From the UHGV virus genome UHGV-1360357: a DNA stretch of 29,070 nt; one strand, given 5' to 3'. The position numbers and the translations under genes were made by a program. Positions 2,948 to 15,389 of the stretch are shown in pieces; position 1 is the stretch's first letter, and each line of letters starts with the position of its first letter. The notes under the pieces are model-generated. The model worked only from the letters and a program-made list of their open reading frames with translations, searched no databases and was not told the origin of the DNA. Origin of the DNA: a virus.

Positions 2948-3463
2948 ATGGCAAGCAGAGGCGTAAATAAGGTGATCATTATTGGTCGCCTTGGGCATGA
3001 TCCAGAAATCAGATATTCACCATCAGGAACGGCATTTGCAAACCTTACAGTTGCTACGTCAGAACAATGGCGTGATAAGCAAACTGGAGAGCAAAAGGAG
3101 CAGACGGAGTGGCACCGCGTGGTAATGAGCGGGAAACTGGCAGAAATTGCCAGCGAATATCTGCGAAAAGGCTCTGAGGTTTATCTTGAAGGAAAATTGC
3201 GGACAAGAAAATGGCAGGATCAAAGCGGACAGGATCGGTTCACTACTGAAGTCATCGTGGGCGTTGGTGGAACTATGCAAATGATTGGTGGCAAGCAAGG
3301 AGGCAATGAACAGTCTTCACCTCAGCGAAATGACGGTCAGCAACAAAGACAACAACCTCAGCAGCAAGGGAATCACAGCGAACCACCTATGGATTTTGAC
3401 GACGATATCCCCTTTGCACCAGTAACTCTCCCTTTCCCTCGTCACGCTATTCACGCAATTTAA
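2948..3463 (+). CDS. ssb: single-stranded DNA-binding protein
   Basis: N-terminal OB fold ([23 protein letters not shown]...), Gly/Gln-rich linker and acidic C-terminal tail ending DDDIPF, typical of bacterial/phage SSB; start ATG adjacent to the annealase stop. Confidence 0.9.
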
Positions 3464-3471
3464 GGACTTAC

Positions 3472-4020
3472 ATGAATCACTTGATGGTTGACCTTGAAAC
3501 AATGGGCAACGGGCCATACGCGCCAGTTATTTCTGTTGGGGCGGTATTCTTTGACCCGAATACCGGAGAAACAGGAGAAGAGTTCTCGGTAAATATCTCG
3601 CTTGAGTCATCAATGCGATATCGGGCGCGTCCTGACGCTTCAACGATTTTATGGTGGCTGGAACAGAGTGAAGAAGCCAGAAAATCGCTAACCAGCAACA
3701 CTCAAGAGCTTTCAACGGCTCTTTCATGGTTATCTGAATTCATCATAAAGAACGCCAACCACAAACTCGTTCAGGTTTGGGGGAATGGAGCATCATTTGA
3801 CTGCGTTATTCTCCGCAACAGTTATTCGCTGACAGGGAAGCCAGTTCCGTGGCAGTGGTGGAATGACCGCGACGTAAGAACAATCGTCGAACTTGGGAAG
3901 GTAATAGGATTCGATCCTAAGCGAGATATGCCATTCAAAGGAACTCGCCACAACGCGCTTGATGATGCCATCCACCAAGCCAAATACGTTTCAGCGATCT
4001 GGAAAAAGTTAGCTAAATAA
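3472..4020 (+). CDS. DnaQ-like DEDDh 3'-5' exonuclease
   Basis: Exo I motif VDLETMG, Exo II GNGASFDCVIL, Exo III HNALDDAIHQAKY; 182 aa; AAGGA RBS. Confidence 0.85.
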   Translation: MNHLMVDLETMGNGPYAPVISVGAVFFDPNTGETGEEFSVNISLESSMRYRARPDASTILWWLEQSEEARKSLTSNTQELSTALSWLSEFIIKNANHKLVQVWGNGASFDCVILRNSYSLTGKPVPWQWWNDRDVRTIVELGKVIGFDPKRDMPFKGTRHNALDDAIHQAKYVSAIWKKLAK

Positions 4021-4037
4021 TCAACAGGAGAAAAACC

Positions 4038-4331
4038 ATGCCAGCGCCTCTGTATGGTGCGGATGACCCGCGCCGCTGTTCCGGCAATTCCGTATCGGAG
4101 GTGCTGGATAAATTCAGAAAAAACTACGATCGAATAATGTCTCTACCACAGGAAACGAAAGAGGAAAAGGAATTTCGCCACTGTATATGGCTTGCAGAGA
4201 AAGAAGAACGAGAGCGAATTTACCAGACATCAATCCGACCATTCCGCAAAGCCACATATACCCACTTCCCTGAAATTGACCCGCGCCTACGTAATTACCG
4301 CTCACGCTATGGCGCTATCAGTAATGACTGA
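4038..4331 (+). CDS. hypothetical protein (97 aa)
   Basis: ATG 4038 with AGGAG RBS; basic/acidic mixed small protein. Confidence 0.5.
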
Positions 4332-4341
4332 GGAATTTACC

Positions 4342-4506
4342 ATGAGAGGACTTGCATACAATCCCGGCACTCTTCCGGCAGAAATGATTATTCGCCAACG
4401 CATAAAGCCAATGCCATCGAGAGAGGAATTGCTTAAGAGAAATTCTTTTCCTTCAGTGAATCAAAACAAATATCTGAATGCGATGTGGCGGAGTGGGAAG
4501 AAATGA
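4342..4506 (+). CDS. hypothetical small protein (54 aa; alternative start 4324)
   Basis: In-frame ATG 4342 preceded by GAGGAA; the track ORF from 4192 overlaps the previous gene and was trimmed; stop overlaps the next start (ATGA). Confidence 0.3.
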
Positions 4507-4949
4507 AACAAATATCACTAATTGAGATGGATGGTTTTCTGAAAGGTAAATGCATCCCACGAGATTTAAAGGTTAACGAAACAAATGCTGAATATCTGGT
4601 GCGTAAATTTGCTGAAGCTGAGGCCAAGTGCGCGGCACTGGCGGTGGAGAATGCGGGAATAAAGTCTGCAATTCCTCAACTACGGGATATTGATGCTGAC
4701 AATGACAATATGGATGACGTATCTCTTGCTGAAGACTTCGGATTCAATCATGCAATAGAACGGATGAGGAGACAGATACCTGAAACCCCAGCCACCGATG
4801 CTTTTCTGGCTGAAGTGCGGGCGCAGGGTGTGGATTCAGCGATTAACACAGTCATTGCGATGATGAACCATCAGCATCCTGTCACATCGAAGGCAATCGA
4901 CATAATGCGCGTCCATGCCTACCAAATTCGCAAAGGAGTGCAGTCATGA
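4503..4949 (+). CDS. hypothetical protein (148 aa), early-region accessory protein
   Basis: ATG 4503 with GGAG...GAAGAA upstream and overlapping the previous stop; Ala/Glu-rich helical sequence. Confidence 0.55.
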
Positions 4950-5194
4950 GTACTCGTCGCAAAATTAACAAAATTCTGAAAGAGAAAGGCCTGACGGCTA
5001 ATGTCGAGTACGACGGAAGCGGTGCCGGTAGAGATGAATATGGTTGGTGGACCGTTACTTTCGAACCGGCATCTGCTGATTTTATTCGTCTTAAGCTGAA
5101 TGAGCCCGAATTCACTGGCTCGATAGAATTTTGCGAACTCGAAGATGGGTTTGAGCAGCTTTCGGAGTTACCCGCAGTGGAGGCCGCCCAATGA
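4946..5194 (+). CDS. hypothetical protein (82 aa)
   Basis: ATG 4946 overlapping the previous stop, AAGGAG RBS. Confidence 0.55.
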   Translation: MSTRRKINKILKEKGLTANVEYDGSGAGRDEYGWWTVTFEPASADFIRLKLNEPEFTGSIEFCELEDGFEQLSELPAVEAAQ

Positions 5195-5715
5195 GCAACA
5201 TCGACAAACAGGTGCTGCGTGAAAAGGCAGAGAAAGCAACGAGTGGTGTGTGGTCGCTCGAATATGGAGAGGAGAGATTTGATGCTGGTGATGCGCTAAT
5301 TCATCGTGAAGTTGTTGGATATCTTCCCATTTGCAGAATTGAAGGAGCGCATCCTGAAAGCGGTTTCGATGAAGATTTCCAAATGGAACAGCAGGCCAAT
5401 GCTGAATTCATCGCCGCAGCCAGTCCGGCTACTGTGCTGGCGCTGCTGGATGAGCTGGAGAAGATGCAGGCGCAATCGTCCAAATGGTGCGAAGCCTTCC
5501 ATAAAGCCGTTTCCGTTGGCGCTCGGTATGAGGAGCGGATTGCTGAACTGGAGGCTCGGGAGCAGAAGAATTTAGCGGAGGAGCGCCAACGTGTGATTGA
5601 TGGTCTTTGCACTATCGGTGAAACGGCGTGGGAAATTGAGGAGTACATGAAAGAATGGGACGCAAAGCACCCGCATGAAGCGGCCACCGCTGGCATTGGC
5701 GTGAAGGGGGAGTGA
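5191..5715 (+). CDS. Ead/Ea22-like protein
   Basis: 174 aa; contains the characteristic EQQANAEFIAAASPATVLALLDELEKMQ segment of the lambdoid Ea22-like family; GGAGG RBS, ATGA overlap. Confidence 0.7.
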   Translation: MSNIDKQVLREKAEKATSGVWSLEYGEERFDAGDALIHREVVGYLPICRIEGAHPESGFDEDFQMEQQANAEFIAAASPATVLALLDELEKMQAQSSKWCEAFHKAVSVGARYEERIAELEAREQKNLAEERQRVIDGLCTIGETAWEIEEYMKEWDAKHPHEAATAGIGVKGE

Positions 5716-5716
5716 G

Positions 5717-5917
5717 ATGGCTACCGTAACAGAAATTCGAGCAAAGCTGCGTGCCGGTGAAGTAGTGATTATGCCGGGGAATTCTGTATTCCTGTTCATG
5801 AGTGAATGCGAGCGCCACCTGGAAGGTGATGAATGCTACCACATCGAACCTCACTCTCATGGGTACTCAAAAGTTTTCGACCCTAAGCGGGCGAAAGGAG
5901 AACACCATGACAACTAA
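5717..5917 (+). CDS. hypothetical small protein (66 aa)
   Basis: ATG 5717 with GGGGGAG RBS; Cys/His-containing (C-x-R-H ... C-Y-H ... H-S-H). Confidence 0.5.
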   Translation: MATVTEIRAKLRAGEVVIMPGNSVFLFMSECERHLEGDECYHIEPHSHGYSKVFDPKRAKGEHHDN

Positions 5918-6434
5918 CAACCACCCGGCGCACGGCCCTGTATCACTCGATCGCCTGCACCAGATACGCGAAGTACTCAGCAAAGCAGCAGCACAAAGCG
6001 ACGGCGGTAATCTCGGCTACGCAATGGCTGATGCTGTCAAGGTGATTGATAAGGCTATTGCTGCGTTTAATGCGGAGCTTTATGTTCCTACCGTTCAGTG
6101 CTGGTCATGCAGAGAGGTTATTGAAGTTTCCGCAGTAGGTGACTGTGATGGTTATTGCCCGAAATGCGACTCGCCAATTGATCTCGATGAAGAGCCATAC
6201 GATGCCGCCATACTTCAGGCTGGCAACTCTCCGGTGATTCCGGATGGTTGGATAAGCTGTAGTGAGCGAATGCCGGATAAGTTAATTCCGGTAATGGTCA
6301 TGTATGAAGACGGTGAGATGTGGTCTGCAATGTGGAATGGCAATCGCTGGGATGATGGCACCGAATATCCGGATCCGCACTCAGTTACGCACTGGCGTGA
6401 AATGCCAGCAGCACCACAGCAGGAGGTGAAGTGA
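5907..6434 (+). CDS. DUF551-like protein with CxxC...CxxC zinc-ribbon (175 aa)
   Basis: ATG 5907 with AAAGGAGAA RBS (the track start at 5802 is an upstream alternative start overlapping the previous ORF); zinc ribbon CWSC...CPKC; C-terminal WISCSERMPD...HWREMP resembles the DUF551 domain common in lambdoid early regions. Confidence 0.65.
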   Translation: MTTNNHPAHGPVSLDRLHQIREVLSKAAAQSDGGNLGYAMADAVKVIDKAIAAFNAELYVPTVQCWSCREVIEVSAVGDCDGYCPKCDSPIDLDEEPYDAAILQAGNSPVIPDGWISCSERMPDKLIPVMVMYEDGEMWSAMWNGNRWDDGTEYPDPHSVTHWREMPAAPQQEVK

Positions 6435-6712
6435 TGTACTCCTTCGCGAAATATACGATTATTGACTGGATAGCCTTCCTTCAGGTTTTGCTCATCTGGT
6501 TTTATATGGCTTACAGGAGTGGACAGTGGATTGTCAGTGTATCCTGTAGCAAGGGATGGCGTTGGTGGAACCGAAAGAATAAAAAAGCGCTGGCCTTGGA
6601 TTCGTTTTACGAAGCATTCAATCTTAACAGTCTTCAGCCTGGTTCTGTCATTGTAGTCACCACTCAAAGCGGCATGACCATTCAGATTCATAAACCAAAA
6701 GAGGAAAAATGA
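6434..6712 (+). CDS. hypothetical protein (92 aa) with N-terminal hydrophobic segment
   Basis: ATG 6434 seven nt after AGGAGG; hydrophobic N-terminus (IIDWIAFLQVLLIWFYMAY). Confidence 0.45.
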   Translation: MYSFAKYTIIDWIAFLQVLLIWFYMAYRSGQWIVSVSCSKGWRWWNRKNKKALALDSFYEAFNLNSLQPGSVIVVTTQSGMTIQIHKPKEEK

Positions 6713-6798
6713 TGTGGCCTATATGTGTTAATTGCGGACGGATGTGCCTATCTGGATGGTGCCGAAAGTGCGACAAATGCACGAAGAAAAGACAATAA
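6709..6798 (+). CDS. 29-aa Cys-rich micro-protein (MMWPICVNCGRMCLSGWCRKCDKCTKKRQ)
   Basis: ATG overlapping the upstream stop, AAGAGGAAAA RBS; six Cys in 29 residues (CxxC, CxxxC, CxxC spacing). Confidence 0.3.
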   Translation: MMWPICVNCGRMCLSGWCRKCDKCTKKRQ

Positions 6799-6857
6799 CA
6801 ATCCTCGCACTCGCGGGGATTTCTTTTATCTGAACTCGCTACGGCGGGTTTTGTTTT

Positions 6858-7169
6858 ATGGAGATGATTATGGTCTGTTCAACATTCAACCATCTAACGT
6901 TACAGAAATACCAGCCGGACCCTGAAGATTTATGCTCACTGTGTGGCGGAAATCATGGTAAAGCCGCCATGATCGAATGTAAGGACAAAATCCACATTTG
7001 CCTTAATTGCGTTGATGTCCTCGTTGATATCAAAAATGAGAGAGAAGATAAAAAGCGTAGCGAGGCTGTTCGCGCCTTAGATTCATGGATGCGGGATGGA
7101 TATAGTGCCGCGCAAATTTATGACTTAGCAATATCAAAAGGCGAAATACCAGGAGTACGCATCGAATAA
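6858..7169 (+). CDS. hypothetical zinc-finger protein (about 100 aa; likely start 6864-6870)
   Basis: CSLCGG ... CLNC Cys pairs; GGAG 6 nt upstream of ATG 6870; last gene before xis. Confidence 0.5.
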   Translation: MEMIMVCSTFNHLTLQKYQPDPEDLCSLCGGNHGKAAMIECKDKIHICLNCVDVLVDIKNEREDKKRSEAVRALDSWMRDGYSAAQIYDLAISKGEIPGVRIE

Positions 7170-7210
7170 GACGTAACCAATATTCGAATTGAAGAACTGA
7201 AAGAAAACCA

Positions 7211-7233
7211 AGCCGCCTGATGGCGGTTTTTTC
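7211..7233 (+). terminator. hairpin plus T6, putative intrinsic terminator upstream of xis
   Basis: GCCGCC-tgat-GGCGG(T) stem followed by TTTTTT. Confidence 0.45.
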
Positions 7234-7247
7234 TTGCGTGTAATTGC
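7234..7247 (+). promoter_or_regulatory. cII-type activator box TTGC-N6-TTGC (PI-like int promoter -35 region)
   Basis: TTGCgtgtaaTTGC directly upstream of the xis start, matching the TTGC-N6-TTGC CII recognition pattern known for lambda PI/PRE/PaQ. Confidence 0.5.
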
Positions 7248-7259
7248 GGAGACTTTGCG

Positions 7260-7478
7260 ATGTACTTGACACTTCAGGAGTGGAACGCACGCCAACGACG
7301 CCCAAGAAGCCTTGAAACAGTTCGTCGATGGGTACGCGAGTGCAGGATATTCCCTCATCCGGTTAAGGATGGAAGAGAGTATCTGTTCCACGAATCAGCG
7401 GTAAAGGTTGACTTAAATCGACCAGTAACAGGTAGCCTTTTGAAGAGGATCAGAAATGGGAAGAAGGCGAAGTCATGA
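7260..7478 (+). CDS. xis: excisionase Xis (lambda-type)
   Basis: 72 aa, MYLTLQEWNARQRRPRSLETVRRWVRECRIFPHPVKDGREYLFHESAVKVDL..., recognised as lambda Xis; overlaps the int start as in lambda. Confidence 0.9.
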   Translation: MYLTLQEWNARQRRPRSLETVRRWVRECRIFPHPVKDGREYLFHESAVKVDLNRPVTGSLLKRIRNGKKAKS

Positions 7479-8526
7479 GCGCCGGGATTTACCCCCTAAC
7501 CTTTATATAAGAAACAATGGATATTACTGCTACAGGGACCCAAGGACGGGTAAAGAGTTTGGATTAGGCCGAGACAGGCGAATCGCAATCACTGAAGCTA
7601 TACAGGCCAACATTGAGTTATTTTCAGGACACAAACACAAGCCTCTGACAGCGAGAATCAACAGTGATAATTCCGTTACGTTACATTCATGGCTTGATCG
7701 CTACGAAAAAATCCTGGCCAGCAGAGTAATCAAGCAGAAGACACTCATAAATTACATGAGCAAAATTAAAGCAATAAGGAGGGGTCTGCCTGATGCTCCA
7801 CTTGAAGACATCACCACAAAAGAAATTGCGGCAATGCTCAATGGATACATAGACGAGGGCAAGGCGGCGTCAGCCAAGTTAATCAGATCAACACTGAGCG
7901 ATGCATTCCGAGAGGCAATAGCTGAAGGCCATATAACAACAAACCCTGTCGCTGCCACTCGCGCAGCAAAATCAGAGGTAAGGAGATCAAGACTTACGGC
8001 TGACGAATACCTGAAAATTTATCAAGCAGCAGAATCATCACCATGTTGGCTCAGACTTGCAATGGAACTGGCTGTTGTTACCGGGCAACGAGTTGGTGAT
8101 TTATGCGAAATGAAGTGGTCTGATATCGTAGATGGATATCTTTATGTCGAGCAAAGCAAAACAGGCGTAAAAATTGCCATCCCAACAGCATTGCATGTTG
8201 ATGCTCTCGGAATATCAATGAAGGAAACACTTGATAAATGCAAAGAGATTCTTGGCGGAGAAACCATAATTGCATCTACTCGTCGCGAACCGCTTTCATC
8301 CGGCACAGTATCAAGGTATTTTATGCGCGCACGAAAAGCATCAGGTCTTTCCTTCGAAGGGGATCCGCCTACCTTTCACGAGTTGCGCAGTTTGTCTGCA
8401 AGACTCTATGAGAAGCAGATAAGCGATAAGTTTGCTCAACATCTTCTCGGGCATAAGTCGGACACCATGGCATCACAGTATCGTGATGACAGAGGCAGGG
8501 AGTGGGACAAAATTGAAATCAAATAA
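7456..8526 (+). CDS. int: tyrosine integrase Int (lambda-type)
   Basis: 356 aa; N-terminal arm-binding domain MGRRRSHERRDLPPNLYIRNNGYYCYRDPRTGKEFGLGRDRR, catalytic region with the conserved R...H-x-x-R...Y residues (HELRSLSARL, LLGHKSDTMASQY); recognised as lambda Int. Confidence 0.95.
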   Translation: MGRRRSHERRDLPPNLYIRNNGYYCYRDPRTGKEFGLGRDRRIAITEAIQANIELFSGHKHKPLTARINSDNSVTLHSWLDRYEKILASRVIKQKTLINYMSKIKAIRRGLPDAPLEDITTKEIAAMLNGYIDEGKAASAKLIRSTLSDAFREAIAEGHITTNPVAATRAAKSEVRRSRLTADEYLKIYQAAESSPCWLRLAMELAVVTGQRVGDLCEMKWSDIVDGYLYVEQSKTGVKIAIPTALHVDALGISMKETLDKCKEILGGETIIASTRREPLSSGTVSRYFMRARKASGLSFEGDPPTFHELRSLSARLYEKQISDKFAQHLLGHKSDTMASQYRDDRGREWDKIEIK

Positions 8527-8529
8527 TGA

Positions 8530-8760
8530 TTTTATTTTGACTGATAGTGACCTGTTCGTTGCAACAAATTGATAAGCAATGCTTTTTTATAATGCCAACT
8601 TAGTATAAAAAAGTTGAATGTGAAACGGTAAAAACAATTAATATCAACAGCTTATAATTGATTCAGTCTAAAAAATAGACTGCATAATGCTACAAAACAC
8701 AACATATCCAGTCACTATGAATCAACCACTTAGATGGTATTAGTGACCTGTAACAGAGCA
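8530..8760. other. attP attachment site (P' arm - core - P arm), lambda-type
   Basis: Core TTAGTATAAAAAAG at 8600-8613 (reverse complement of the lambda common core GCTTTTTTATACTAA, one mismatch at the edge); arm-type Int sites containing GTCACTAT on both sides (8539-8554 tandem, 8706-8715, 8741-8750). Both arms look phage-derived. Confidence 0.8.
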
Positions 8761-13041: not shown

Positions 13042-13527
13042 ATGAAAAAATCACTATTAATTGTCCCGCTTCTGCTGGCTGGATGCGCAAAAGTAAGTGA
13101 CTACCAAGCAAGTTGCGAACAACGCTATCCAAAGCTTAGTGATATGGCTAATTGCCTTGATGCCAGCGTGAAGAACGACTCACGCATGGCATCAGCACCA
13201 ACACCTAAGCTGTATGTCCTTGCTGCGAAGATGCTCGGGCAAGGTGTCGATCAAGGCAAGATAAGTGACGCACAGGCAAGACTTGAGCTTCAGAATCTTT
13301 ATGTTCAATTACAAAGCCAAGAACAAGCCCAACAAATAGCACAAAGCCAAGCATTCCAGCAGGCTTTATTGAATTATCAGGCTGTAAACACAATGCAAGC
13401 GATCGAGCAAAAAGCGCGCCAGCCTGTTATAACTCAACCTTACCCAACACGCGTTGACACATATACAAACTGCAATTCAGGTTTTGGAAACACGGTAACA
13501 TGCAACAGTAGCAGTAATATCAGGTAG
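13042..13527 (+). CDS. lipoprotein (lipobox LLAGC, +2 Ala), 161 aa, Gln-rich
   Basis: MKKSLLIVPLLLAGC lipoprotein signal; residue after the Cys is Ala (not Asp), consistent with outer-membrane sorting; Gln-rich helical middle, Cys/Asn-rich C-terminus. The RBS is weak or distant. Confidence 0.65.
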   Translation: MKKSLLIVPLLLAGCAKVSDYQASCEQRYPKLSDMANCLDASVKNDSRMASAPTPKLYVLAAKMLGQGVDQGKISDAQARLELQNLYVQLQSQEQAQQIAQSQAFQQALLNYQAVNTMQAIEQKARQPVITQPYPTRVDTYTNCNSGFGNTVTCNSSSNIR

Positions 13528-13541
13528 TTATATCTTATCTT

Positions 13542-15389
13542 TTATTGCTGTTCTGCTGTAATTTGGCTTGAAAGTATAGGGCGTATCGCATTTGCAGCAT
13601 TATTTAGCGCTCTTTCATAGGCTGGTGTTCCTGCTTTGGTGTTTGCCAAACGTAAGAGAGCATTCCTTGCTGCTTTGGACTCATACAAGCGCATCATTGC
13701 ACCGAAACCAGCCTCAAGCCCCATTGATACGCCAAGAGTCGCAGTTGCGCCAATCGTCCTTATCCTGTTGGCTTGCGATTGCCCCGTCTGAGTTACTACA
13801 TTTGCGGTGTCTGACCTTGCTGTTTGCTGCAGAACTTCATGAAGAGCATCAAGTTCTTTCATGTGCTTTCCAGAAAAAATAGTGTTGTAAATTTCACCGC
13901 CTGACTGAGATTTCAGCTTATTAACTTCAGTGATGAACTTGGCTGGAGAGTCACCGGCCTTTTCCGCTATTTTGCTGACGTAAGCTGCACGCATAGCATC
14001 TTTCCCTTTATCATCCAGTGCGCTCCAGATTCGTTTCACGTCAGATGGTTTTCTGCTTAATACAACGGTATTTATAAGTTCAGGACTGGCTTCACTGCTT
14101 GCCTTGTTGAGTTTGTTAGCAATGTTTTTATTAAGCACCTTATTATAAACGTTTGCATAATCGGAATTTGCTTTAAGGTATTTTGCTGCGTCTGATGCAC
14201 CGAGGTTTTTAGCAACTGCGTTACGAAGGTCTTTTGACATTGCATTCTCTACCATATTGGTAGCTGCTTTTGCCTGGTTGGGGAAGACCATAGCATCTCC
14301 CTGAACATTAGATCTAAATGCTGTTCTGTGCTGACGCAAGAGATCAAACGTAACATCCAAATCAGTTGCAGGGTTTGCTAATTCTTCACGTAGGTTACGC
14401 AAGGATGTAAGCAGGCTTTGATTGGCAGACGTCCCAAGTCGTTCCTGTCTTGCGATCGCTGTATTCAGAGCATTCATGGTATTTGTGGTATCAACTGCGG
14501 CATTACCCATTTTATTGGTGACGTCATTGATAACAGCGCCAGCGGCATCCTTCCTCCCCCTTAACGTGGTGGTCAGAGATTTCACCACATCATCAGGGTT
14601 GTACTCACCAAAACGGTCAAAATAATTACTTACCAGCTTACTACGCGTTGCATATTGCTCCGCTCGCTTTGAGCCTGTCCCGAGCAAAGCCCCCTCGGCA
14701 TCCTGAGTAAGGCCGCGAGTGAAAGCATTTTTCGGCGGGATAACATCAGATGTCATTGGTGTCACGCCCATCGATTCTGATGTGGCAATTTTCTTCGCCA
14801 CTTCTGGCGCAATATCACCTTTTATAGCCGTTATTCCACGCCCTATTCCCTTTGCTGCGGCGGAAAGAACACCCTGAGCGGCAAGGTTAACTCCGGCATT
14901 TTTAGCTGCATTTTGTGCGAAATCGCCTTTCTGATTTGCGGCCTCTGCCAGTGATCCAATAGCCATGCTTCCTGCCGTTCCAACTCCTGGAACTAAATAC
15001 CCACCAATTGTTTCACCGGCTTGTGCGTAGGGGTCTGTCGGTCTGTCTACTGGACGATAAACATCATCCAAAACCTTGGGTCCACCAAGCCCCTGACTGA
15101 TTGCATTAATCAGACTTGCGCCACCCTGCAATACGTCAAATGGTATGTTTACCAGACCACGACCAGCCTGTTCTGCAATTTGCCCTGCACTTTGACCACC
15201 AGTGAGCCAATCGCCAGCTTGTTGCATCAATGATGGTTCTTCCCGTGTTGGTGCATTATTGTCCTGATTAACTGTTTGTTGCTGAACAGCCTGACCAGCA
15301 AAATACTCATCAATGGCGGCCCCAATATCTTCCGTGCTCGTACCATCAGGGAAGGTAAATGTCTTACCGTTTGCAGTTACTTTCATCAT
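13542..15389 (-). CDS. ejection (injection) protein, P22 gp16 homolog
   Basis: 615 aa; N-terminus (M)[32 protein letters not shown]; size and position match P22 gp16. Confidence 0.8.

Follow-up and report, generated by a model that had tools for sequence, protein, structure and literature searches.

Does a 29-amino-acid open reading frame (ORF) with six cysteines, lying upstream of xis in a phage genome, encode a real protein, and what might such a protein do? We addressed this question in the virus genome UHGV-1360357, of which a stretch of 29,070 nucleotides (hereafter the window) was analysed; all coordinates are those of the window, and the region of interest is 4038-7169. The small ORF, here called the micro-gene, is very probably a real protein-coding gene when judged from its sequence, and is best classed as an undescribed micro-protein family of the kind 'small zinc-binding phage accessory proteins'. 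Jointly with this reading, we consider it likely that 4038-7169 comes from a P22-like temperate phage and forms the accessory 'ea' (exo-xis-type) segment of its early-left operon. The region itself is ordinary, already-known biology; only the micro-gene is new.

Sequence and start of the micro-gene

A micro-ORF of 29 amino acids with six cysteines and a ribosome-binding site had been described in the first-pass annotation, and the ORF was indeed present at 6709-6798, with a Shine-Dalgarno (SD)-like motif upstream. Translation from ATG 6709 gives the 29-amino-acid product MMWPICVNCGRMCLSGWCRKCDKCTKKRQ, which holds the six cysteines, and translation from ATG 6712 gives the 28-amino-acid product MWPICVNCGRMCLSGWCRKCDKCTKKRQ. 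ATG 6712 shares its A with the upstream stop codon TGA 6710-6712, which ends a DUF4752 gene. Homologues are arranged in the same manner: their starts overlap the upstream stop (UGAUG/UAAUG) or trail it by one base, and a purine-rich SD lies within the upstream gene. In one relative, ATT replaces the first ATG and the second ATG is retained. Because of the homologues' start layout and the relative lacking the first ATG, we took the following as the gene, with its start most likely at the second ATG (6712) and not at 6709:

6712-6798 (6709 alternative), + strand: micro-gene, 28 amino acids (29 from ATG 6709)

The micro-gene would be translated through UGAUG/AUGA coupling to whichever gene precedes it.

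Conservation and coding evidence

We searched 50,697 phage records with tblastn and found unannotated peptides, 64-76% identical to that of the window, in several phages unrelated to the window phage. These were the virulent siphophages C1/S192 (Deseoctovirus), KFS-SE2 (Skatevirus), ST1UNAM, ZCEC08 and CF-SP1 (Swiduovirus), together with the 154-kb Citrobacter myophage Tr1; example peptides are MWPICKHCGRMCLNSWCRKCDKPSK, MWPICKHCGRKCWGDWCVKCDKTSK and MWPICKHCGRMCWSVWCTKCDKRG. The family thus spans lambdoid prophages, four virulent siphophage genera and one large myophage, always at 24-29 amino acids. We defined it, under the name 'MWPIC', by an own ATG, 24-29 codons, the pattern M-W-P-I-C-x2-C-G-R-[MK]-C-x3-W-C-x-[KR]-C-D, and a start that overlaps or abuts the upstream stop. 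The window peptide has every invariant residue of this definition and the same start layout. Protein-level conservation in related phages had been proposed in the first-pass annotation as a check on the small ORFs, and the peptide proved clearly conserved at that level.

Metagenome searches gave a consistent picture. A degenerate DNA pattern that covered only codons 1-12 retrieved 77 IMG/VR loci, and W-C-x-[KR]-C-D followed downstream in all but a few close lambdoid copies with visible damage, namely a deletion fusion in one and point changes at Cys21 in two. The reciprocal pattern, drawn from the C-terminal half, recovered these loci and one more. A looser pattern that began at the Trp codon (TGG) yielded 43 metagenome loci, every one of which had an ATG directly upstream (43/43) and a stop after 24-29 codons.

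We measured selection as the proportions of non-synonymous (pN) and synonymous (pS) differences, scored on codons outside the search pattern to limit ascertainment bias. The ten codons that qualified showed pS = 1.00 and pN = 0.22 (pN/pS 0.22); the other two frames gave pN/pS values of 2.43 and 2.73 and contained stops. Variable sites at codon positions 1, 2 and 3 numbered 7, 7 and 18 of 22, respectively. An alignment of 11 sequences had 14 invariant positions (M, W, P, I, C, C, G, R, M, C, W, C, C, D), to which the metagenome set added GRKC variants, in which M12 is replaced by K. Of the six cysteines, five are conserved, a point missed by the first-pass annotation; the sixth (Cys24) is confined to the lambdoid version. 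A further set of 56 IMG/VR loci, anchored on DUF4752 and 95-98% related, had nearly invariant micro-ORF DNA and was too close to judge coding status alone. A DUF4752-anchored scan of one-genome-per-species contigs produced a single locus, which was uninformative on diversity.

By this comparison, the micro-ORF is an open frame far beyond chance. Because distant relatives keep the peptide, its start and its stop, and because selection is frame-specific, our data argue strongly that the micro-ORF is a real gene.

Genomic contexts of the micro-gene

At least seven different genes were found directly upstream of the micro-gene, and in all of these contexts the junction was a stop/start overlap or a 1-nt gap with a purine-rich SD. 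The upstream contexts were:

DUF4752 gene: the window and many lambdoid prophages
DUF551 gene directly: L178/L209
Orf73/TraR-like C4 protein, with a NinX-like gene downstream: L102, L111, L116, L155
190-216-amino-acid phrog_7798 protein: siphophages
phrog_2510 protein: Tr1
membrane protein, with a MazG-like gene downstream: L104
226-amino-acid protein: L130

By these contexts, the micro-gene behaves as a small mobile accessory cassette without a fixed partner. Because no fixed partner accompanies it, we argue for an autonomous and perhaps host-directed function.

The slot after DUF4752 is occupied differently in Salmonella-type P22-like relatives, where an ASCH-domain gene takes the place of the micro-gene. 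This substitution bears on the possibility that the micro-ORF is a relic, left from the N-terminal part of a zinc-finger gene that was once longer, or else a C-terminal extension added to upstream proteins by ribosomal frameshifting. Truncated stumps of the full-length ASCH gene do occur in that slot, and in L031 and L041 deletion fusions run through the micro-ORF. However, the length of the micro-ORF is constant at 24-29 amino acids in every lineage, and its own ATG was present in all 43 loci of the scan that did not require one. No longer homologue was found among 1.84 billion representative proteins, and the genes upstream are mutually unrelated, which excludes a shared frameshift product. 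We therefore regard a relic or extension as highly improbable and retain the reading of the micro-ORF as a gene.

We also noted that one copy of the neighbourhood, locus L007 (JAJXBQ010000315.1), lies on a 2.7-kb contig from a 'Segatella copri' metagenome-assembled genome. Its DUF4752 protein is 92% identical to that of the window, and the hairpin element described below is present. This contig almost certainly derives from an enterobacterial phage and was placed in a Bacteroidota genome by a binning error.

Hairpins downstream of the micro-gene

Three terminator-like hairpins were found between the micro-gene and xis:

6800-6821, + strand: terminator-like hairpin 1, 9-bp stem followed by TCTTTTAT; starts 1 nt past the micro-ORF stop
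6832-6851, + strand: terminator-like hairpin 2, 8-bp stem followed by TGTTTTAT
7210-7229, + strand: terminator-like hairpin upstream of xis, bidirectional stem

A GC-rich stem-loop with a U tract, the structural signature of a terminator, was observed at 6800-6829, 6832-6859 and 7210-7237. The two-hairpin fold had a free energy of -24.6 kcal/mol (z = -3.98). The element of ~70 nt that holds hairpins 1 and 2 (6795-6868) was conserved amid different neighbours, with at least three upstream partners (the micro-ORF, a stump of the ASCH gene or some other sequence) and three alternative downstream genes, and mosaic break points at ~6794 and ~6868 flank it. L130 and CF-SP1 have hairpins at the same place with different stem sequences. 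Hairpins 1 and 2 are predicted to be intrinsic terminators of the early-left transcript that would double as a recombination joint between modules. As a separate observation, the behaviour of the element recalls the 'boundary sequences' of the Sf6 annotation.

The position of hairpin 1 raises the possibility that the micro-ORF is a leader-like or spacer ORF. On this account, a ribosome terminating on the 5' arm of the hairpin would tune read-through into the 99-amino-acid gene downstream, xis and int, and the peptide itself would be functionless. In the window, in L130 and in every siphophage copy, only 1-6 nt separate the micro-ORF stop from a terminator-like hairpin. The micro-peptide, with its many Cys and Trp residues, also resembles attenuator leader peptides, which are enriched in the amino acid that is sensed. 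In contrast, the Orf73/TraR-NinX, Tr1 and L104 contexts have a gene directly downstream and no hairpin, and no alternative anti-terminator pairing was seen in the fold. Moreover, 14 residues are invariant despite variation in their codons, non-Cys ones (W, P, I, G, R, M/K, W, D) among them, which is needless for a spacer. We judged a leader ORF to be very unlikely, if less so than a relic.

The same element suggests another alternative, in which the conserved feature at the micro-ORF is a DNA or RNA element (either a structured RNA or a recombination boundary) and the open frame across it is a coincidence. In favour of this account, the 70-nt hairpin element next to the micro-ORF is itself a conserved boundary, and the lambdoid micro-ORF DNA is almost invariant. 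Across lineages, however, synonymous sites are saturated and non-synonymous change is suppressed in a frame-specific manner. In addition, Rfam gave no match in 3400-8700, and both mosaic joints fall outside the ORF. This alternative was the least probable of those that we weighed, and conservation of an encoded peptide remains the preferred explanation.

Predicted fold and function of the micro-peptide

The motif CxxC-x8-CxxC was invariant in the micro-peptide alignment, and a single-sequence AlphaFold2 model was compact, with a mean predicted local distance difference test (pLDDT) score of 80.7. The top match, both by sequence profile against PDB and by Foldseek, was the C-terminal ribbon of RPC2 of RNA polymerase III (PDB 5fj8_B, 7ast_M); neither match was significant (E = 0.31 and 3.0, respectively). 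The RPC2 ribbon has the same CxxC-x8-CxxC spacing and resembles the micro-peptide in local sequence (VCDKCGLMGYSGWCTTC versus ICVNCGRMCLSGWCRKC). It differs from the micro-peptide in being part of a 1,149-amino-acid eukaryotic enzyme and in lacking the fifth Cys, so the resemblance is a structural analogy and not homology. Most of the other weak, non-significant Foldseek matches were zinc-binding modules. Against PDB and BFVD, the sole significant Foldseek match was HK106 gp30 (BFVD E = 4.7e-4), which is the same gene in another phage (see below).

Based on the model and the motif, the peptide is probably a minimal Zn(Cys)4 knuckle. The two CxxC pairs, eight residues apart, would fold around one zinc ion as a knuckle or ribbon. 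The fifth invariant Cys (Cys13) would be spare, and two invariant, exposed Trp residues and a basic tail would complete the knuckle. The peptide would act alone, as a small binding module directed against a macromolecule of the host or of a competing phage early in infection. A role as a host-directed binder or inhibitor is a tentative suggestion, to which we give less credence than to the knuckle. Somewhat more doubtful still is the broader idea of a new class of zinc-knuckle micro-inhibitor, exchanged between temperate and virulent enterobacterial phages, that neutralises some conserved protein of the host, either a core enzyme or part of a defence, early in infection. The first-pass annotation had thought small Cys-rich proteins plausible inhibitors of host enzymes; family, defence-library, structure and literature searches returned no matches that speak for or against that idea. 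If the peptide is an inhibitor, it would be among the smallest folded phage effectors known.

Several observations weigh against the reading of the micro-gene as a coding gene for an autonomous zinc-binding effector. The gene status of the micro-ORF was read from sequence comparison, and part of its homologues came from searches for similar proteins, a route that lowers pN/pS. About six of the 56 close lambdoid copies are disrupted (frameshift, nonsense, Cys21Arg/Tyr, deletion fusions), and the few substitutions among these close copies are mostly non-synonymous. Salmonella phage Vi II-E1 carries a decayed copy (L214, ~685-790) with an insertion and a frameshift, so loss of the gene does occur. 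Because of the disrupted copies and the decay in Vi II-E1, the micro-gene appears dispensable in many settings. Our searches found no significant similarity of the micro-peptide to any characterised protein, so the claims of zinc binding and of a target draw on motif spacing and a single-sequence model. Lastly, an exhaustive search of the 1.84 billion representative proteins, made with a 30-amino-acid version of the peptide, found no larger protein with the motif and hence no fusion clue. The sole match of that search was a repetitive 157-amino-acid protein, which we rejected as unrelated.

Annotation status of the micro-gene

The micro-ORF had been called unannotated, and this was nearly right: we found one proper annotation, HK106 gp30 (YP_007151700.1, UniProt K7P872), listed as 'hypothetical protein'. 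HK106 gp30 is the same gene, with 29 amino acids, one substitution (K27Q) and a position after DUF4752 with an ATGA overlap. Nothing biological separates the two; the HK106 entry simply stands isolated, without a family, function or literature. Among 5,426 complete E. coli genomes in RefSeq, 183 carry the micro-gene, and in each of the 25 sampled rows of those 183 (25/25) the only gene listed under the match was DUF4752. The annotation of O26:H11 11368 likewise omits the micro-gene. In two phages, ORFs have been called over the micro-gene in two non-conserved frames, namely Bas106_0019 (L005 1502-1603) and mEp213_028 (L004 1495-1734); both are probable mis-annotations.

Database models did not capture the peptide, which had no match in Pfam, NCBIfam, PHROGs or PADLOC. 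Three third-party annotation (TPA) metagenome entries of the peptide are labelled 'DUF1244'; we rejected this label, because none of 11 family members matched PF06844 even at E <= 10. A cluster at 90% identity that contains the micro-peptide (P0001-P0006) has as its representative a 480-amino-acid TolC-like protein. We discarded this protein as a relative of the peptide, from which it is unrelated, and because of this clustering artefact the peptide is hidden from representative-based searches. Literature searches on the motif, the DUF families, lambdoid small-ORF profiling, accessory-gene screens and phage homologues of the ClpX zinc-binding domain found nothing on the micro-gene, and it appeared in no published description of lambda- or P22-type regions that we found. 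The micro-gene is a concrete case of a conserved coding gene too small for gene callers to report. The simple DNA pattern from this analysis retrieves the family and can be used by annotators.

The protein before xis

The gene that follows the hairpins ends the region:

6870-7169 (6858 alternative), + strand: protein before xis, 99 amino acids (103 from ATG 6858); ClpX-type C4 zinc-finger-like

Its start is likely ATG 6870 and not 6858, given that GGAG lies 5 nt upstream of the former and that RefSeq/PGAP uses it (99 amino acids). The protein matched phrog_3680 (E = 4e-69). Residues 24-62 resemble the N-terminal zinc-binding domain of ClpX, with an identical CxxC-x18-CxxC spacing; CSLCG...ICxxCVDxL of the window aligns with CSFCG...ICDECVDL of ClpX. 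The scores fall under curated cut-offs: Pfam zf-C4_ClpX (PF06689) gave E = 0.014 and 15.7 bits (cut-off 27), NCBIfam ClpX gave E = 0.002, and a profile comparison with the ClpX zinc-binding domain in PDB (2ds7) gave E = 0.021. Unlike ClpX, the window protein is without an AAA+ module, and its C-terminal helical domain is unrelated. UniRef names members of its cluster 'ClpX-type ZB domain-containing protein' by rule, which favours membership, and 24 homologues share the invariant core YQPDPEDLCSLCG...KIH.C..C. The AlphaFold2 model of the 103-amino-acid protein was weak (pLDDT 66) and too poor for fold assignment, and Foldseek with this model found nothing. We rejected identity with Ea8.5, since neither the single sequence nor a profile matched its solved homologues (2M7A etc.) at E <= 1. 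A role as a decoy of the ClpX N-domain is conceivable.

We made further observations on the C-terminal part of this protein. Residues 64-103 (7047-7169) show homology to the C-terminal end '...IYDAIAAGKIPGVKLED' of the 190-216-amino-acid phrog_7798 proteins (BLASTP E = 7e-6). Genes for phrog_7798 proteins lie directly upstream of the micro-gene in four siphophage genera (e.g. L088 921-1499), and in L130 a phrog_7798-type protein (13058-13666) is encoded just downstream of the micro-gene and hairpins. The Vi II-E1 annotation leaves empty the upstream interval in which related siphophages carry the phrog_7798 gene. Proteins with the '...IAAGKIPGV-x-E' C-terminal domain (the 99-amino-acid protein and phrog_7798) are recurrent neighbours of the micro-gene and may be functional partners of the micro-peptide.

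The gene chain between exonuclease and xis

Ten ORFs on the + strand fill 4038-7169 between the exonuclease and xis, at a coding density of 0.98. The micro-gene and the protein before xis are listed above; the other members of the chain and the two flanking genes are:

3472-4020: exonuclease upstream of abc2, Rv2179c-like 3'-5' exoribonuclease family, PF16473 E = 3.6e-72
4038-4331, + strand: abc2, anti-RecBCD, 97 amino acids; PF11043 E = 6.1e-64; phrog_656 'abc2 anti-RecBCD'; AGGAG 7 nt upstream
4342-4506, + strand: DUF2737 protein, 54 amino acids; PF10930 E = 1.1e-30, 105.7 bits, above gathering score; phrog_1117
4503-4949, + strand: Ead/Ea22-like protein, 148 amino acids; PF13935 E = 1e-6, 29.9 bits (cut-off 27); phrog_614 E = 5.6e-47; ATGA overlap with the preceding gene
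4946-5194, + strand: 82-amino-acid uncharacterised protein; phrog_28780 E = 3.8e-24; ATGA overlap
5191-5715, + strand: second Ead/Ea22-like protein, 174 amino acids; PF13935 E = 4.5e-18, 66.6 bits (cut-off 27); phrog_250; ATGA overlap
5717-5917, + strand: orphan protein, 66 amino acids; 1 nt past the preceding stop; strong SD (GGGGGAG) upstream
5907-6434, + strand: zinc ribbon and DUF551 protein, 175 amino acids; central CxxC-x15-CxxC, C-terminal PF04448; 11-nt overlap with the preceding gene
6434-6712, + strand: DUF4752 protein, 92 amino acids; PF15944 E = 7.5e-36, 122.5 bits, above gathering score; hydrophobic N-terminal helix; TGATG overlap
7260-7478, + strand: xis; PF07825 (Exc) E = 1.9e-40

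The first-pass annotation had counted about nine ORFs here, joined by short overlaps, and the run is present. Its junctions comprise four ATGA overlaps, one TGATG overlap and one 11-nt overlap, together with gaps of 1 nt, 10 nt and, before the last gene, 59 nt. An SD-like motif was found 3-9 nt 5' of all chain starts except ATG 6858. Most chain genes would be translated by termination-reinitiation at the overlapping stop and start codons. A Cys-pair protein just before xis had been counted in this run; that protein exists, but the 59-nt gap with two terminator-like hairpins, which had gone unnoticed in the first-pass annotation, sets it apart from the chain. The chain genes are mostly non-essential and presumably carried on one message toward xis-int.

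The first chain ORF, which the first-pass annotation did not recognise, is the well-known Abc2. Its Pfam score was 212.7 bits against a cut-off of 25, with residues 1-97/97 covered, and it is the only chain gene of known function (RecBCD hijack); the rest belong to uncharacterised named families or to none. The exonuclease upstream is of the Rv2179c-like family and is not lambda Exo. An Ea22-like protein had been predicted, and PF13935 matched both 5191-5715 and 4503-4949. The 82-amino-acid sequence encoded between them (4946-5194) is present in identical form on 74 E. coli and Salmonella contigs. The 66-amino-acid ORF at 5717-5917 had no match in Pfam, PHROG or NCBIfam and no tblastn match in the 50,697 phage records. 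In a large protein collection it had seven homologues (72-97% identity), two of which could be sourced, to Citrobacter freundii and Klebsiella michiganensis.

The prediction of a DUF551-like protein with a CxxC...CxxC ribbon was likewise borne out: PF04448 matched residues 114-171 (E = 3.8e-18, 66.6 bits against a cut-off of 22), and CWSC...CDGYCPKC precedes the domain. Zinc-ribbon matches for this ribbon were all sub-threshold. We rejected identity with Lar, as the protein had no PF14354 match and BLASTP against Sf6 Lar (gp20) gave E = 0.37; no other window ORF matched PF14354 either. The DUF4752 homologue of Kapi1 is annotated with a transmembrane helix at residues 9-27. Two long antisense ORFs, 5301-5696 (-, 131 amino acids) and 6215-6691 (-, 158 amino acids), lie opposite the Ea22-like and DUF551/DUF4752 genes, and are probably spurious.

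Comparison with known systems

At the DNA level, a single phage or complete E. coli record accounts for at most 58% of the 3.1 kb. Segments with 88-97% identity were present in IME10, Sf6, ST104, HK106, Kapi1, mEp213, Stx phages and 3,435 of the 5,426 complete E. coli genomes, and the mosaic matches included HK620-type phages. The integrase gene precedes a tailspike-sized ORF and a set of large ORFs encoded on the opposite strand. This layout and the matches to Sf6, HK620-type phages and ST104 point to a P22-like phage.

Among known proteins, lambda Orf73 (TraR-like C4), Ea8.5 (a homeodomain/zinc-finger hybrid) and Lar resemble the micro-peptide in being small Cys4 proteins encoded among early accessory genes. 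They differ in having 55-100 amino acids and long spacers between knuckles, and no sequence similarity was found. Neither TraR/DksA nor Lar matched any of the ten window ORFs in Pfam at E <= 0.1, and the micro-peptide profile matched no Ea8.5 structure in PDB. We conclude that the micro-gene is a clean case and not a new principle.

The lambda exo-xis region is described as early-transcribed, non-essential and poorly understood (PMC10834534; PMC8614690). The region studied here differs from it in that orf60a, orf61 and orf63 were not among the family matches of the ten window ORFs (no direct comparison was made), and in that no TraR/DksA-type (orf73-like) finger was found in these ORFs. With abc2, DUF2737 and DUF4752, the gene set is P22-like and unlike the lambda cassette. 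In other respects, the lambda/Stx exo-xis and P22/Sf6/HK620 'ea' regions are alike to it: they lie between recombination genes and xis, are transcribed early-left, and consist of small mosaic accessory genes with Ead/Ea22 and DUF551 modules and boundary sequences. As a whole, the region adds nothing new: accessory blocks of this mosaic make-up are familiar from P22-like and lambdoid phages.

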